Virus record (IMG/VR): IMGVR_UViG_3300015207_000030
Coordinates: 1-23,780 of that record
DNA length: 23,780 nt
Source of the DNA: a virus
Taxonomy: Duplodnaviria > Heunggongvirae > Uroviricota > Caudoviricetes
Strand: one strand, 5' to 3'
The number at the start of each line of letters is the position of its first letter. Within the stretch, counting starts at the first letter, position 1. The position numbers were made by a program, and so were the translations under genes. The notes below the pieces were generated by a model. It ran no database searches. It was not told the origin of the DNA and saw only the letters and a list, made by a program, of their open reading frames with translations. Below are positions 1,081-10,918 of this stretch, one piece after another.

Positions 1081-1200
1081 TTGTGCAAATCCAACAATAT
1101 CACAATCCGATATTTGTGCACGTTTTTTGCGAAAAATGTAACGAATGTAACGAATGTAACGAACGAAGTGTGCTATAATTAAAATGGCAACAGAATGACC
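1081..1200. repeat. Copy A of a ~120 bp promoter-like direct repeat (copy B at 2839..2959)
   Basis: Aligns by eye with 2839..2959 at high identity. Contains TTGTGCA twice, an imperfect inverted repeat (CAACAATATC / GATATTTGTG), three perfect tandem 9-mers ATGTAACGA (1136..1162) and an extended -10 TGcTATAAT (1171..1179). Confidence 0.75.
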
Positions 1201-1224
1201 GTTCCGAACAAACGGCGGATAAAT

Positions 1225-1260
1225 AAAGCAACGGCAGCTCATTAACTGCCGTTGCTTTGT
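1225..1260 (-). terminator. Intrinsic terminator hairpin downstream of vapC; may also stop + strand transcripts from repeat A
   Basis: Perfect stem GCAACGGCAG (1228..1237) / CTGCCGTTGC (1246..1255) with 8 nt loop; A-tract on + strand upstream gives a U-tract on the minus-strand transcript; TTTGT follows on + strand. Confidence 0.6.
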
Positions 1261-1294
1261 ATATGGCACTTCCTTTTAAGAGTTCGTCGGACGT

Positions 1295-1699
1295 TCAAAG
1301 CGTTTCAAGAAAACTGCCGGGTTTGATCGCGGGGATATCGCTTTCCTCAAAATCGCGCGTGTTTTGGGTGATGATGTATTTGCACGAATTACGCTTTGCC
1401 GTGAGCATTTGAACGGAATCCTCAAAATCCCGCGCTTTAAGCCGTGCTGCTCCCAGCGTGTCTGCGGCTTTGAGATCGACAACGTCAAATATTGCCGCCA
1501 GCTTTATCACAAGATCGTCGGTTTTGTCGGGAGTAAGCTCGCGGCGGAGAATATACACGATATTCGCAATAGACAACGCGGAAACGATACCGTTTATCTG
1601 TCTTGTCTCGCACAGCTTCCATACCTCTGCGGACTGCTCAAAGCCTTGACGGCGTGAAAGCACATCTATCAGAATGTTTGTGTCAATCAAGACCTTCAT
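1295..1699 (-). CDS. vapC: PIN-domain toxin, VapC family
   Basis: 134 aa; N-terminal MKVLIDTNILID with the conserved acidic residue, plus DFEDS and IITQNTRDF segments typical of PIN nucleases; overlaps the upstream antitoxin gene by 17 nt. Confidence 0.8.
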   Translation of the reverse strand: MKVLIDTNILIDVLSRRQGFEQSAEVWKLCETRQINGIVSALSIANIVYILRRELTPDKTDDLVIKLAAIFDVVDLKAADTLGAARLKARDFEDSVQMLTAKRNSCKYIITQNTRDFEESDIPAIKPGSFLETL

Positions 1700-1916
1700 G
1701 CCGCATTACCTTCTCCTCGCGCATTTTTTTGTAATCATAATCGTTTTTTAGAACGCCCGTCAGCTCGTCGGTCAATGATGAAACGGTCTTTTCACGCGAA
1801 ATCATTCTTGCGACCTCTTCGCCGTTTTTGGTGATCCGGATTTCTTCGTTTGACTGCACCAGCTTCAGATATTTTCCGAAGTTGTTCTGCATTTCCGTTG
1901 CGGATACTGTTAACAT
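1683..1916 (-). CDS. Phd/YefM-family antitoxin
   Basis: 77 aa; N-terminal VSATEMQNNFGKYLKLV...ITKNGEEVARMIS pattern of Phd/YefM antitoxins; GGAGG RBS (complement of 1925..1930) about 8 nt upstream of the start. Confidence 0.75.
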   Translation of the reverse strand: MLTVSATEMQNNFGKYLKLVQSNEEIRITKNGEEVARMISREKTVSSLTDELTGVLKNDYDYKKMREEKVMRHEGLD

Positions 1917-2172: not shown

Positions 2173-2823
2173 ATGCCGGGAAAAAGGAAAGCGGCGCAAA
2201 CAAATTCATTAGGTATGCAGAGCGGCAGCGGACAGGCGATTTTCTCTCTGCAAGCCGGAACGCCTATTTTTGTCAAGACTGCCGACGTGTGCTCGGCAAC
2301 GGGCAAAACCAATCAGTGGATAGGACAGCTGACTTCACAAGGGGTTATTCACAAATGCAGAACAAACCACGGTCAGCTGTACAGTCTTTTTGATATGATG
2401 CGGGCATACTGCGCATACCTTGAAGAACGCGCGAAAAAGGACGATGAGGATATCTGCCTGCTTGAGCTGCGAAAAAAACAAGCCGAAACCAAACTGAAAG
2501 AATCCAAGGCTGCTGTCGCGGAACTTGAGGCAGCCGAGTTTCAAGGAAAAATGCACCGCTCGGAGGACGTGCGCGCAATGACCGCCGATCTGTTGTATTA
2601 CGTTCGCGGTTCGCTGCTGGCGCTCGCGGGAAGATGCGCGGCAGACTGCGCCGCGTCGGCTGATCCTGCGGAGGTACAGAAGATCATAGAACGGGAGGTT
2701 TTCGCGATACTTAAAGACCTCTCCGAATACAAGTATGACAGCAAACGTTACGACGAGCTAGTCCGCGAACGCATGAAACGCAGTTCGGACACGGAGCTTT
2801 CCGATTTTGACGATGAAGATTGA
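2173..2823 (+). CDS. Terminase small subunit, lambda Nu1-like (winged HTH)
   Basis: 216 aa; N-terminal segment (VKTADVCSATGKTNQWIGQLTSQGVI...GQLYSLFDMMRAYCAYLEERAK) parallels the lambda Nu1 N-terminus as I recall it (TIQNW..QG...LYD...Y..R); coiled-coil middle, acidic C-terminus; sits upstream of the large terminase. Confidence 0.55.
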   Translation: MPGKRKAAQTNSLGMQSGSGQAIFSLQAGTPIFVKTADVCSATGKTNQWIGQLTSQGVIHKCRTNHGQLYSLFDMMRAYCAYLEERAKKDDEDICLLELRKKQAETKLKESKAAVAELEAAEFQGKMHRSEDVRAMTADLLYYVRGSLLALAGRCAADCAASADPAEVQKIIEREVFAILKDLSEYKYDSKRYDELVRERMKRSSDTELSDFDDED

Positions 2824-2838
2824 CGGATCGGTGTTGAC

Positions 2839-2959
2839 TTGTGCAAGTTGAACAATATCGCAAAACGATATTTGTGCAGCTTTTTTCAAAAAAATGTAAC
2901 GAATGTCACGAATGTAACGAATGAAGTGTGCTATAATTAAAATGGAAACAGAATGATCT
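2839..2959. repeat. Copy B of the promoter-like direct repeat
   Basis: Same architecture as copy A: TTGTGCA x2, inverted repeat, 9-mers ATGTAACGA / ATGTCACGA / ATGTAACGA (2894..2920), extended -10 TGcTATAAT (2929..2937). Confidence 0.75.
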
Positions 2960-2991
2960 TGCGGGACAGACGGTTTCTTTTAGAATATTTG

Positions 2992-3027
2992 CGGCTTGCG
3001 GTGTAATATTGCAAGCCGTTTCCTTTG
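2992..3027 (+). terminator. Hairpin plus T-tract between repeat B and the VRR-NUC gene (possible attenuator)
   Basis: Stem CGGCTTGC (2992..2999) / GCAAGCCG (3011..3018), 11 nt loop, followed by TTTCCTTTG directly before the RBS of the next gene. Confidence 0.4.
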
Positions 3028-3042
3028 TGAGGTGAAATTGAA

Positions 3043-3414
3043 GTGCAGCAAAAACAGCATATTGAAGATACCGAGCAGATACATCTTTTTGATTGGGCGG
3101 CGATGCAGTCGGGGAAATATCCCGAATTGTCGCTGCTTTTTCATATCCCGAACGGCGGCAAGCGTGACGCACGTGAGGCGGCGCGGTTCAAAAGAATGGG
3201 CGTAAAGGCGGGCGTTCCCGATCTGTTTCTGCCCGTTCCGCGCGGGAAGTTTCACGGATTGTTTGTCGAACTGAAAGCGCCGAAAGGAAAACTTTCCGAT
3301 TATCAGAAGCAGTGGCTTCAGGAGCTTGCGGCGAGCGGCTACGCGGCTTGCGTTTGTTTCGGTTTCGACGAGGCTCGGCAGGATATTATGAAGTATCTTG
3401 AGGGGAAATTCTGA
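3043..3414 (+). CDS. VRR-NUC domain nuclease (PD-(D/E)xK superfamily)
   Basis: 123 aa from a GTG start with RBS GAGGTG; motifs HIPNGG.R, GVPDL and FVELK...GKLS..Q..W match the VRR-NUC signature as I recall it. Confidence 0.75.
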   Translation: MQQKQHIEDTEQIHLFDWAAMQSGKYPELSLLFHIPNGGKRDAREAARFKRMGVKAGVPDLFLPVPRGKFHGLFVELKAPKGKLSDYQKQWLQELAASGYAACVCFGFDEARQDIMKYLEGKF

Positions 3415-3434
3415 TTTTGCAATCGATTGCAAAA
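3415..3434. promoter_or_regulatory. Perfect 20 bp palindrome TTTTGCAATCGATTGCAAAA
   Basis: Starts immediately after the VRR-NUC stop codon; perfect dyad symmetry read directly from the sequence. Confidence 0.5.
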
Positions 3435-3524
3435 ATTGCGCTGCGGAACGAACACGGAGCAGAATATGATTTTAGTTTGATAACCGCCGCGCTCTGCGGT
3501 TTTTCTTTTACGGAGGTGTAGAAC

Positions 3525-5441
3525 TTGCGAAACGAGACCAAGCGGCAGCGGGAGGCAAAGCTGAACGCGTGTATCACGAAAGTCTTGAACGCGATGAAGC
3601 CTCCCGAAATAAGAACAGTGGCGGAGTGGGCGGATAAGAACCGCCGTTTAACGTCGGAATCATCGGCGGAGGTAGGCAAATGGCGCACCTCGCGCACGCC
3701 GTATATGCTGGATATTCTGAACTCGTTCACCGACCCGAAGGTCGAGCACATTGTTGTGGTTGCCTCCTCGCAGGTCGGGAAATCCGAGGTTGAAAACAAT
3801 ATCGTCGGATACATTATAGATCAGGACCCCGGTCCGATATTATTTGTACAGCCGACGGTAGACGACGCGAAGAAATATTCCGAAATGCGTATCGCTCCGA
3901 TGATACGTGAAACAAAGTGCCTTAAGAAAAAGGTCGCGGACCCGAAAACGCGCGATGGCGCAAACACCAAGCGTCAGAAAGCGTTTCCGGGAGGAGTGCT
4001 CGTGCTAGCGGGTTCAAATGTTCCACATGATCTGTGTTCAATGCCTATTCGGTATCTGATCGGCGACGAGCGTGACCGTTGGGCAAAATCGGCGGGCTCG
4101 GAGGGCGATCCATGGGAACTGGCGGTCGCGCGTACAAGAACGTTTTACAACCGCAAGCTGATAGAGGTCTCCACGCCGACCGTTAAAGGAGCGTCCGCTA
4201 TTGCCAAGGCGTACAGTCTCGGTACTATGGAGCGTTGGAAAACACAATGTCAGCATTGCGGCGGGTATTCCGAGGTGCAGTTTGAAGATATCCGTTTTGA
4301 ATATGATTCCGTTGACAAAGATGAAGAGAAGATATTCGATATCAAGTCGATTTTCTATGTTTGTCCGATTTGCGGCGGCGTTTCTTTGGAGAACGAGGTG
4401 AAAAAACAGCCGTCGAAATGGGAGGCGGAAGTGCCCGAGGCAAAGGAACTGCATAAGACCCGTTCGTTCTGGCTGACGGCATGGGTCTCCCCGTGGGCAA
4501 CATGGGAGTCTATCATACTGCAATTCCTGCAAGCGGGTACGGATTCCGCAAAGCTGCAGGTAGTGTACAACACTCAATTCGGCAAGCTGTGGGAAAATCG
4601 CGGCGATATGGACAGCGAGGAGGATATGCTCGCGCGTCGCGAGGAATACGGTGCGGAGCTGCCGGACGGCGTTCTGGTGCTGACGTGCGGCGTTGATACA
4701 CAGGACGACCGCTTGGAATATGAGGTGGTGGGCTATGGACATTTTAAAGAAAAATGGGGCATAAAAAAGGGCGTCATTATGGGCAGACCCGATACAAACG
4801 AAGTGTGGGAGCGGCTTGATGATGTTATAGCTCACAAATACACATTTTCAAACGGGCTGTCGCTCGGCGTATCGTTGACGTTTGTCGATGAGGGCGGTCA
4901 TTTTACACAGGAGGTACGCAGGCGCTGCCGCGAGCGGCAAAGCAAAAACGTATTTGCGATCAAGGGCGCATCGGGCAGTCGGGATATTCCGTATACGTCC
5001 GTTCCGAAACGGCAGAAGATCGTAATAAACGGTCAGACCGTCGGTTCTGTATGGGTGTATGAGATCGGCGTTGACGCGGGCAAGCAAAAGATCTTTGACG
5101 ATCTGCGTGTGCAGACGCCCGGGGCGAATTACTGCCATTTCCCGCGCCGCGACGATTACGGTAAGGCGTTCTTCAAGTCGTATATGTCGGAACGCCTGAC
5201 ATATAACGAAAAACTCAAAAACCCGTGGCGTTGGGAAAAAATTCCCGGGCATGAGCGTAACGAGGCACTGGACTGCCGAAATTACGCAAACGCGGCATTT
5301 GCGGCACTCGATCCCGATCTTGACGCTGTCGAACATCGATTAAAAGCGATGTTAATCGGAACAACGGCAGGCGCGCCGAAAAAGAAATCCCCGAAAACAG
5401 CGAGAAGAAAGCCGACGGACACGGCATACAGCGATTGGTGA
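3525..5441 (+). CDS. terL: Terminase large subunit, lambda GpA family
   Basis: 638 aa; TTG start after RBS GGAGGTG; Walker A-like SSQVGKSE within a PYMLDILNS...LFVQPTVDDA...PMIRE block matching the lambda gpA N-terminal ATPase region; CQHCGG and CPICGG zinc-finger-like pairs. Confidence 0.85.
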   Translation: MRNETKRQREAKLNACITKVLNAMKPPEIRTVAEWADKNRRLTSESSAEVGKWRTSRTPYMLDILNSFTDPKVEHIVVVASSQVGKSEVENNIVGYIIDQDPGPILFVQPTVDDAKKYSEMRIAPMIRETKCLKKKVADPKTRDGANTKRQKAFPGGVLVLAGSNVPHDLCSMPIRYLIGDERDRWAKSAGSEGDPWELAVARTRTFYNRKLIEVSTPTVKGASAIAKAYSLGTMERWKTQCQHCGGYSEVQFEDIRFEYDSVDKDEEKIFDIKSIFYVCPICGGVSLENEVKKQPSKWEAEVPEAKELHKTRSFWLTAWVSPWATWESIILQFLQAGTDSAKLQVVYNTQFGKLWENRGDMDSEEDMLARREEYGAELPDGVLVLTCGVDTQDDRLEYEVVGYGHFKEKWGIKKGVIMGRPDTNEVWERLDDVIAHKYTFSNGLSLGVSLTFVDEGGHFTQEVRRRCRERQSKNVFAIKGASGSRDIPYTSVPKRQKIVINGQTVGSVWVYEIGVDAGKQKIFDDLRVQTPGANYCHFPRRDDYGKAFFKSYMSERLTYNEKLKNPWRWEKIPGHERNEALDCRNYANAAFAALDPDLDAVEHRLKAMLIGTTAGAPKKKSPKTARRKPTDTAYSDW

Positions 5442-5743: not shown

Positions 5744-6151
5744 TTAATCTTGAATGTGACATTGCTTTTTCAGACCGTCCAGAAGCACGGCTGAGAAATT
5801 CACGCCCTGTTCTTCGGCGATTGCGTTGACCCAACCGGGAATGGAGAGGGTTTTCTTTACGAAGTGCTTGTGCATTTTCTCGCGGAACGGTTTCATATAG
5901 ACTTCGATAAGCATTGGAAGCTCGTTTTTTTCAAGCTGAATATCCTTAAGCTCCGAGGGCTCAGGAATTTCCTCCTTGTCCTCCTCCATTCCGTAAAGGT
6001 GCAGCAGAAGAGCGTCTTTAGCGCTTTCGATTGCTTTTTCGGTGGTTTCCCCCGCGCTTACACAGCCGGGGAGGTCGGGGAAATATATGCCGATTGTTCC
6101 TTTATCGCCGTATTCCAACACGGCGATAAATCTGTATTTGTCGAGGTACAT
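5744..6151 (-). CDS. hicB: HicB-family antitoxin-like protein with C-terminal DNA-binding (RHH-like) tail; no HicA partner found
   Basis: 135 aa; N-terminal YRFIAVLEYGDKGTIGIYFPDLPGCVSAGETTEKAIESAKDALLLHL matches the HicB/UPF0150 signature (PDLPGC core); C-terminal KKTLSIPGWVNAIAEEQGVNFSAVLLDGLKK resembles an RHH/CopG-type segment; RBS AGGAG 6 nt upstream. Confidence 0.75.
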   Translation of the reverse strand: MYLDKYRFIAVLEYGDKGTIGIYFPDLPGCVSAGETTEKAIESAKDALLLHLYGMEEDKEEIPEPSELKDIQLEKNELPMLIEVYMKPFREKMHKHFVKKTLSIPGWVNAIAEEQGVNFSAVLLDGLKKQCHIQD

Positions 6152-10461: not shown

Positions 10462-10483
10462 CGCATTGGGAAAGGAGAACGAT

Positions 10484-10918
10484 ATGCTGATAAAGATCAT
10501 TCGCGGTACATACGGACTTAAAAGCGGCAATATTATCAAGCCGAAAACCTGCAGCGACCCGCCCTTTCATGTTGAACATGAGGAGGGCGAGCGGCTGATA
10601 CGTCTTGGTATTGCTGATTTAGTTTTCTCTGACACTATGCCGCCTGTAAGGAACAAAGGGGACGATCCGAATGCTGTTCCCGACAGCAAGGTTCGGGTGT
10701 TGGACAGCGATGACGACGAGGGCTACGAGGTCAAGAGCACGGTTGAAGAACGCGACGTTCCCGAATACAGCGAGGACAACACAAACGCCGAATTGCAAGC
10801 GATTGCAAAAGAATACGGCATAGAATTTCCGCAGCGTGCAAACAAGGCGCAGATGCTCGACGCGCTTGACGAGTTTTTCGGCGGCACGCCCGAGATCAGC
10901 GCAAGGGAGCCCGAATAA
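10484..10918 (+). CDS. Hypothetical head-associated protein with C-terminal HeH/Rho-N-like motif
   Basis: ATG 10484 with RBS AAGGAG; C-terminal NAELQAIAKEYGIEFPQRANKAQMLDALDEF resembles a Rho-N/SAP-like helix-extension-helix motif; acidic middle. Confidence 0.45.
   Translation: MLIKIIRGTYGLKSGNIIKPKTCSDPPFHVEHEEGERLIRLGIADLVFSDTMPPVRNKGDDPNAVPDSKVRVLDSDDDEGYEVKSTVEERDVPEYSEDNTNAELQAIAKEYGIEFPQRANKAQMLDALDEFFGGTPEISAREPE

Follow-up and report, generated by a model that had tools for sequence, protein, structure and literature searches.

The locus and its flanking genes

We analysed a 23,780-nucleotide stretch of viral DNA (the window). It represents the left portion of the genome of a temperate, siphophage-like virus whose head module is of the lambda type. 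Among deposited phages the nearest are the Faecalibacterium phages Taranis, Lagaffe and Pioen and the Roseburia phage Shimadzu, with about 65% nucleotide identity in terL, and the nearest genomic relatives are MAGs of Oscillospiraceae, Ruminococcus and Lachnospiraceae. The gene order and the features around the terminase genes are as follows.

Start of the gene order: amidoligase (C-terminal part) and GGACT genes, then a Zn-ribbon ORF
1081-1215, between the Zn-ribbon ORF and the PIN/Phd pair: promoter-like element D1, copy A
Before TerS, minus strand: PIN/Phd pair
2173..2823, plus strand: small terminase subunit (TerS), matching PHROG 57 'terminase small subunit' (E 8e-22)
2839..2973, plus strand: D1 copy B, a 135-nt promoter-like repeat in which an extended -10 comes after three tandem TGTAACGAA units
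2991..3029, plus strand, between D1 copy B and the VRR-NUC RBS: intrinsic-terminator-like hairpin of 13 pairs with a T tract
3043..3414, plus strand: VRR-NUC nuclease gene (GTG start, TGA stop, 123 aa; RBS GAGGTG at 3030-3035)
3415-3434, no strand assigned: inverted repeat TTTTGCAATCGATTGCAAAA, a perfect 20-bp palindrome with arms TTTTGCA and TGCAAAA and centre atcgat, starting at the base after the TGA stop
3435..3511, plus strand, between the repeat and the TerL RBS: conserved non-coding terL leader
3525..5441, plus strand: large terminase subunit (TerL) of the lambda gpA family (TTG start; RBS GGAGG at 3512-3516; PHROG 15)
After TerL: head-tail adaptor, orphan HicB (minus strand) and lambda-family portal
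Then, in the 3' part of the order: ClpP-like protease, gpD-like decoration protein and gpE-like capsid protein

A preliminary description of this DNA had placed a VRR-NUC gene between the small and large terminase genes, followed directly by a perfect 20-bp palindrome, and both statements hold exactly. The TerL matches Pfam GpA_ATPase (E 2.7e-74) and GpA_nuclease (E 9.8e-79), and like others of the gpA type it has its own cos-nicking nuclease domain. The TerS, which gave no Pfam or NCBIfam match, is 36-39% identical to the annotated TerS of Taranis and Lagaffe, and is the partner of the gpA-type TerL. In Taranis and Lagaffe, the nearest gpA-type phages, the TerS and TerL genes overlap, with no gene between them. 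Neither PADLOC nor NCBIfam gave a match for VRR-NUC or its neighbours.

VRR-NUC is closest to the Holliday-junction resolvase psNUC

The ORF at 3043..3414 almost certainly encodes a protein of the VRR-NUC family with the PD-(D/E)xK fold. It scores 52 bits against Pfam VRR_NUC (PF08774; curated gathering score 23.8; E 8.8e-14), matches PHROGs 824, 2363 and 5702 ('Holliday junction resolvase'), and aligns by phmmer with psNUC from Psychrobacter sp. (PDB 4QBL) over residues 7-120, essentially its full length (E 8e-21). An AF2 model (pLDDT 87, pTM 0.79) has the alpha/beta restriction-endonuclease-like core, and Foldseek superposes it on the 4QBL chains with a TM score of 0.76-0.77, an rmsd of 2.1 A and 36% identity, followed among PDB matches by 4QBN, 4QBO and FAN1; the protein gave no HNH match. 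The catalytic residues of the family are intact, as the initial assignment to PD-(D/E)xK nucleases demanded: D60, E76 and K78 are present, P59-D60 and E76-L77-K78 align with the psNUC motifs, and D60, E76, K78 and Q88 are invariant among 47 homologues. In the same 47 proteins E8 and E11 of the N-terminal helix are at least 90% conserved; an HxPNGG motif lies at residues 34-39.

The likeness to psNUC, and to the phage proteins stNUC and saNUC described with it, extends to Pfam family, single-domain size, predicted fold and the catalytic PD-motif Asp and (D/E)xK Glu and Lys. The only difference in the end-to-end alignment is a deletion of about 10 residues in the beta1-beta2 linker, which in psNUC partly covers the active site. 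All three characterised proteins are dimers that cut four-way junctions symmetrically and leave linear duplex uncut, and psNUC behaves as a canonical resolvase, whereas FAN1 is monomeric because a helical insertion blocks dimerisation (Pennell et al. 2014, PMC4103454). The VRR-Nuc domain found in FAN1 of eukaryotes and Pseudomonas is this catalytic domain too, and it matches our protein weakly in sequence and in fold, but FAN1 is a large 5'-flap nuclease; its insertion is absent from VRR-NUC, which aligns end to end with psNUC and whose 123 aa, by Pfam and the AF2 model, consist of the catalytic domain without any added module for DNA recognition. VRR-NUC is thus likely, from its family and fold, to resolve junctions, and is probably a homodimer. 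Because stNUC and saNUC are weak and partly non-specific nucleases in vitro (PMC4103454), a member of this family need not be a clean resolvase.

The preliminary description had also offered, as an alternative to a packaging nuclease, an enzyme aimed at host DNA or structures. The second half of that alternative is now the best-supported reading, since the closest characterised relative is a Holliday-junction resolvase. Both the enzyme family and its resolvase activity have been described before, and annotations of phage genomes list the gene as a matter of routine: homologues occur in 395 deposited phages, none of them above 60% identity.

The gene stays ahead of terL while the terminase changes

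We gathered relatives from IMG/VR, GTDB genomes, metagenomes and Logan assemblies. In 16/16 distinct lineages whose VRR-NUC proteins are 78-99% identical, the order is TerS, VRR-NUC, TerL, and these lineages divide equally between two terminase families. Eight (the window, L084, L085, L087, L216, L231, L411/412 and L413/414) have a gpA-type TerL and a lambda-type portal; the other eight (L004, L092/217, L213, L214, L215, L241, L415 and L416) combine an unrelated TerL of the HK97 type (PF03354/PF20441) with a P27-type TerS and an HK97-type portal, and also carry an HNH gene, which lies upstream of TerS. L241 was the sole new member of this close clade to come from the metagenome scan, which otherwise gave two homologues at 75-78% identity (L242, L243). 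Across the divide, window positions 3058-3435 are 96% identical in nucleotide sequence to L213 although the flanking terminase genes are unrelated; the homology begins at the 5' end of the gene and ends at the last base of the palindrome. The L213 operon runs promoter-like element, HNH, TerS, Zn-ribbon ORF, VRR-NUC, repeat, TerL, and the VRR-NUC gene is translationally packed into it, with overlapping stop and start.

More distant homologues are placed otherwise. Those at 75-78% identity (L218-L222, L242 and L243) are not adjacent to a terminase, and those at 40-62% have DnaB, SSB or a replication initiator as neighbour, with HNH, TerS and TerL usually following a few genes downstream. We formed clusters at 90% identity; in 17-18 of the 34 that had enough flank, a TerL lies downstream on the same strand at a distance of no more than 5 kb, and these TerLs come from four Pfam terminase families. 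In cultured phages SSB or replication genes adjoin the homologue, and the terminase end of the genome begins just after it. The psNUC-like genes of Psychrobacter, which lie in prophages, likewise precede HNH, TerS and TerL by a few genes, upstream of the packaging module rather than inside the TerS/TerL pair. Replication-gene neighbours together with the downstream TerL show that the norm of the family is to be the last recombination gene before the packaging module; the position inside the TerS/TerL pair is specific to the 78-99% clade. In the literature we found no paper linking VRR-NUC to terminase function, and no report of a VRR-NUC gene between terminase subunits or of the repeat.

A unit of 380 bp, ORF plus repeat, that is 96% identical between unrelated flanking terminase genes, with sharp borders at the start codon and the repeat end, could be a selfish cassette that spreads between phages in the manner of homing and does the phage no service. 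The reference gpA-type phages have no such gene at the TerS/TerL position, and a homing-type gene (NUMOD4/HNH_3) lies nearby in L087. We nevertheless regard such a cassette as unlikely. The gene is present in all 16 sampled lineages of the clade, with no presence/absence polymorphism; the protein has no DNA-recognition module added to its catalytic domain and is unlikely to be a free-standing homing endonuclease; and the two terminase types share no flanking homology that could drive homing. The amidoligase, GGACT, D1 and leader are also common to the same phages, and with other backbone genes shared in this way ordinary mosaicism explains the cassette pattern.

HNH endonucleases, cos and host-directed nucleases

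Many cos phages have an HNH gene beside cos and the terminase genes (PMC3592412), and the HK97 gp74-type packaging endonuclease resembles VRR-NUC in being a small nuclease gene that adjoins the terminase genes. The preliminary description had suggested that VRR-NUC takes the HNH position and may be an analogous packaging nuclease; spelled out, the idea is that it cuts cos together with the terminase, as a substitute for the HNH protein that HK97-like phages have. The position of VRR-NUC immediately 5' of terL in every lineage of the clade fits this idea, and to that extent an association with the terminase genes stood; the substitution for HNH did not, and we consider a cos-cutting accessory of this type very unlikely. 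In eight sister lineages HNH and VRR-NUC are in the same operon. The window itself retains a dead 5' remnant of this HNH gene, its first ~15 codons (2005-2064), from which we conclude that its lineage descends from an HNH-bearing arrangement; coexistence and remnant together show that VRR-NUC is no replacement for HNH. As the fold of HK97 gp74-type HNH is also different (beta-beta-alpha-Me), the likeness is only positional.

The setting of cos points the same way. VRR-NUC occurs with both terminase families, and in the window its partner is not an HK97-like TerL but a gpA-type enzyme with a cos nuclease domain of its own; TerS and TerL suffice in Taranis and Lagaffe, and the characterised relatives of VRR-NUC do not cut linear duplex. 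Joined to the HNH remnant is a non-coding block whose counterparts precede TerS, in conserved form, both in relatives of the gpA type and in Taranis. This block (~2047-2135) is the likely cos, and it lies upstream of TerS, not beside VRR-NUC.

An offensive or defensive nuclease, which would degrade host or competitor DNA or counter host defence, has precedents: VRR-Nuc domains serve as toxic T6SS effectors (PMC9635880), T7 endonuclease I and like resolvases also degrade host DNA (noted in PMC3485210), and the window is rich in accessory modules such as the PIN/Phd pair and the orphan HicB. It is equally improbable here, as PADLOC found no match, the gene has no adjacent immunity gene, the protein carries no domain for targeting or secretion, the phages of this group are temperate (with a serine integrase in the L004 phage), and homologues are found in replication modules beside SSB and DnaB.

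A conserved inverted repeat and a structured leader ahead of terL

Apart from the inverted repeat TTTTGCAATCGATTGCAAAA, no perfect palindrome in the window exceeds 12 bp. In a first-order Markov simulation a palindrome of at least 20 bp arose somewhere in 23.8 kb with ~3.4% chance, so that taken alone the repeat is only mildly unusual; it is conservation that marks it as non-random. Across 12 related loci neither of the 7-nt arms varies at all, while at the centre 5 of the 6 bases do (atcgat, attgct, atcgct, cgcgct, atcgcc, atcaat and atcaag), whereas the VRR-NUC coding sequence of the same loci has a mean nucleotide identity of 79%, 49% variable columns and a longest invariant run of 6 nt. 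The arms are therefore more conserved than the adjacent coding sequence, the conserved element is TTTTGCA-N6-TGCAAAA, and the perfect 20-bp palindrome is its local form, an accident of the centre.

Placement of the repeat follows neighbouring genes in general rather than the nuclease. It is intact between VRR-NUC and TerL in 13/16 lineages; of the four lineages beyond the 12 loci, one is intact, one has a decayed right arm (L411/412), one has the repeat relocated to 3 nt upstream of the VRR-NUC RBS (L413/414), and one has none next to the gene (L415). An ORF of 69-80 aa separates VRR-NUC from the repeat in two or three lineages (L092, L215, L416), the repeat is 6-25 nt upstream of the terL RBS in L084, L213 and L214, and the L004 phage has a further copy 8 nt upstream of the RBS of its serine integrase (L331). 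The common theme of these sites, 3-25 nt upstream of the RBS of terL, VRR-NUC or integrase, is a position just ahead of a gene. The tie between palindrome and nuclease that had been drawn from their adjacency in the window thus dissolves in the relatives, and the function of the repeat would bear on neighbouring genes. Against our best reading stands the identical 20-mer found inside HK97-type terL genes, one copy of which keeps perfect symmetry through a double change.

As RNA the repeat would form a weak hairpin (-6 kcal/mol, z -1.1; 2/8 GC pairs), followed by ATTGCG and no U tract. Its arms show no covariation across the 12 loci, so that an RNA or DNA hairpin and a dimer-binding operator are indistinguishable; their invariance at the level of sequence points to recognition by a protein, and the repeat is probably read by one, as an operator in DNA or as a stem-loop in RNA.

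Several established classes of element were considered and rejected. An intrinsic terminator is contradicted by the weak, AT-rich stem, the missing U tract and the absence of a terminator-scan match at this position. A cos site is contradicted by the presence of the repeat in two unrelated terminase systems and by its loss, decay or relocation in three lineages, and the separate conserved cos-like block upstream of TerS fits better. A cruciform substrate of the resolvase is unlikely, given that only arms of 7-8 bp around a centre of 4-6 nt are conserved. The window copy fits the cre/LacI-type operator WTGNAANCGNWNNCW by eye, but the central CG varies in relatives, and a serine integrase att site is not supported by integrase relatives at 77-86% identity, which do not have the repeat. 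Rfam has no family for the repeat, the leader or D1. An IMG/VR scan for TTTTGCAA-N4-TTGCAAAA returned at least 119 stretches, almost all of them chance matches in contigs that are AT-rich or unrelated; several are in coding sequence (LQAIAK, ILQQLAK), including a near-match in the window at 10792.

It is highly improbable that the VRR-NUC dimer of this clade is sequence-directed, in the manner of a type II restriction enzyme with TTTTGCA-N6-TGCAAAA, copies of which adjoin the gene, occur within HK97-type terL and precede an integrase gene, as its cognate site. Nuclease and site would in that case form a portable module whose programmed cuts or nicks might, for example, seed rolling-circle replication or packaging, or spread the cassette. 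Arms more conserved than coding sequence, the 380-bp unit shared by unrelated terminase operons and the symmetric terL-internal copy speak for it; against it, an intact site is missing from L411 and L412, no site adjoins the gene in L415, and the characterised relatives are structure-specific, not sequence-specific. We conclude that the repeat is not the partner site of the nuclease.

In the window the repeat is instead the first module of a structured leader ahead of terL. Within this 90-nt leader a long-range helix, GCGCTGCGG...CCGCCGCGC, is accompanied by a terminator-like hairpin (3482-3501, from the terminator scan) that is followed by TTTTTCTTTT just before the terL RBS. RNAalifold, applied to an alignment of nine loci (the window and eight others) that spans both terminase types, gave three helices and nine pairs with compensatory changes, which support the two helices beyond the repeat. 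The leader is absent in L213 and L214, and an IMG/VR scan for its motif returned the L004 phage itself and chance coding matches, nothing else.

Upstream of the nuclease gene, D1 copy B is 85% identical to copy A and has the extended -10 TGcTATAAT, with the -10 hexamer at 2932-2937; a simple sigma-70 scan misses it because it has no -35 hexamer. In relatives D1 is found between TerS and VRR-NUC (L084, L413) or upstream of HNH-TerS (L213), and on the strength of these sequence features it is a putative promoter. The hairpin that follows it was found both by the terminator scan (2991-3019) and by RNA folding prediction, and an equivalent hairpin comes after D1 in copy A, L084, L213 and L413.

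A proposed role in clearing branches before packaging

On balance, we favour the view that VRR-NUC is a late-expressed resolvase that debranches concatemeric DNA for packaging, with its timing and role read from gene position and kinship. VRR-NUC would be a stand-alone structure-specific endonuclease of the psNUC type, cutting four-way (Holliday) and other branched junctions. In this temperate Oscillospiraceae phage group its gene would have left its usual place, at the end of the module for replication and recombination, and entered the packaging operon immediately 5' of terL, and as part of that operon the nuclease would be made together with the packaging machinery. There it may remove the branches that recombination and replication leave in concatemers, so that the terminase motor does not stall. 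Such debranching would serve either type of terminase, with no help to cos cleavage of the HNH kind. The strongest comparative argument is that the position against terL has been kept through a complete change of terminase family, which fits a need common to all motors and not a cofactor of one cleavage chemistry; retention next to terL could instead reflect shared regulatory sequences or mosaic history.

Other phages have enzymes with the role proposed here. T7 endonuclease I and lambda Rap/RusA clear branches from concatemers for packaging. The T4 resolvase endonuclease VII (gp49) binds the portal and frees motors stalled on Y- or X-shaped DNA (PMC9958956); such a physical link to the portal has been shown for T4 alone. 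In SPP1 the gene of the resolvase G44P, gene 44, is the last early gene and adjoins terminase genes 1 and 2 (PMC3485210), abutting the terminase genes as the VRR-NUC gene does. The folds are unrelated to that of VRR-NUC, endonuclease VII being a His-Me finger protein and G44P having the RusA fold. G44P is dispensable in the laboratory (PMC3485210), and the packaging benefit of VRR-NUC may therefore be small.

If our proposal is true, a junction resolvase has been kept before terL while the terminase and head module were swapped between lambda-like and HK97-like forms, which would be comparative evidence that debranching is a general need of packaging and not a peculiarity of T4 and T7. The analysis also corrects an easy annotation error, since a nuclease beside a terminase is not always an HNH-like cos factor. 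The repeat, the structured terL leader and the repeated promoter-plus-terminator element provide handles on late-gene control in the phages of uncultured gut Oscillospiraceae.

Candidate regulatory elements ahead of the packaging genes

The packaging region of the window contains two kinds of element that look regulatory, a promoter-like direct repeat and a structured leader. We located them, with further copies of the direct repeat in related loci that also carry VRR-NUC between TerS and TerL, as follows.

Window 1081-1215: 135-nt direct repeat, copy A
Window 1227-1262: terminator-like hairpin after copy A (z -4.4)
Window 2839-2973: 135-nt direct repeat, copy B, 85% identical to copy A
Window 2991-3029: terminator-like hairpin after copy B
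Window 3435-3511: conserved structured leader between the palindromic repeat and terL
L084 ~930-1020, L213 ~45-130 and L413 ~4765-4870: further copies of the 135-nt element

The 135-nt element has an upstream dyad, ATATCG..CGATAT, three tandem copies of TGTAACGAA occupying the expected -35 position, and TGcTATAAT as an extended -10. After every copy comes a leader of 45-90 nt that closes with a strong terminator-like hairpin. This layout, a promoter and an early terminator ahead of packaging genes, is similar to that of lambda PR'/tR', where antitermination is Q-type, and by analogy we suggest that the element and its hairpin resemble that system.

The structured leader before terL occurs with both terminase families. 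In alignment A3, comprising the window, L085, L087, L216 and L231 (gpA-type TerL) and L004, L092, L215 and L241 (HK97-type TerL), RNAalifold gave three helices with compensatory changes at 9 pairs. Towards its 3' end the leader is able to fold into a terminator-like hairpin. The leader had no match in Rfam, is confined within IMG/VR to the VRR-NUC/TerL clade, and is absent between the repeat and terL of L213 and L214. We regard it as a candidate attenuator or antitermination RNA.

Copies of the palindromic repeat at other sites

The same 20-mer as the repeat, TTTTGCAATCGATTGCAAAA, lies within the terL coding sequence of HK97-type loci, about 0.9-1 kb 3' of the terL start (L092 7732; L213 2955; L415 6358; L416 6712; also L241), where it encodes F-A-I/V-D-C-K. 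The L214 variant, TTTTGCAGTCGACTGCAAAA, carries two changes, one turning I into V and the other synonymous at D, that together leave the palindrome perfect; in L004 and L215 the site deviates. These internal 20-mers may be due to chance in the coding sequence or may mark an additional functional site.

A further copy, TTTTGCAATCGCTTGCAAAA, is found at 2963-2982 of L331 (the same phage contig as L004), 3' of a CAP12/Pycsar-type TIR gene and 8 nt 5' of the RBS that serves a large serine recombinase gene. No such copy is present in relatives of the integrase that share 77-86% identity with it. The window also has a one-mismatch near-match to the repeat core, ATTGCAAGCGATTGCAAA (10792-10809, within ORF 10466-10918), which encodes LQAIAK, part of a weak Rho_N/HeH-like motif, and which we rejected as a coding coincidence. 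Similar coding look-alikes (ILQQLAK) account for other database matches, such as that in L115.

Neighboring genes and the likely cos region

The genes and non-coding features flanking the packaging genes in the window are these.

19-872: Amidoligase_2 gene, then a gamma-glutamyl cyclotransferase-like (GGACT) gene
1295-1916, minus strand: PIN-domain toxin and Phd/YefM antitoxin pair
2005-2064: HNH-gene remnant, a dead ORF of 19 codons
2047-2135: conserved non-coding block just 5' of TerS, AAAAGGTACTGTGACG, then CCCCCGCGGGGG (2067-2078), then AGACTGCGGGCTCGTCGACCCCGAATTGCACGCAGTGACAGGCG
5744-6151, minus strand: HicB-like antitoxin gene that lacks HicA

The Amidoligase_2-GGACT order just 5' of the packaging region is conserved throughout the clade (window, L004, L085, L216, L231, L411, L413), with ParB-N6/N4 methylase and C5 methylase genes further 5' in several loci. 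The PIN/Phd pair, antisense to the packaging genes, is an insertion that separates promoter-like copy A from the HNH remnant, and it is absent from the same position in L231. The HicB-like gene is flanked by the genes for the head-tail adaptor and the portal; because L413 and L414 have a HicA-HicB pair at the equivalent position, only the antitoxin seems to have been retained in the window.

The block at 2047-2135 is common to the window, L084, L216, L231 and Faecalibacterium phage Taranis, in whose version the GC palindrome differs, and the start of the record of another Faecalibacterium phage, Lagaffe, also resembles it. The block is likely the cos region. About the first 15 codons of the HNH remnant correspond to the beginning of the HNH endonuclease gene in HK97-type relatives (L213 209-256). 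This remnant is a relic and shows that the HNH/TerS block was replaced by a lambda-type cos/TerS block.
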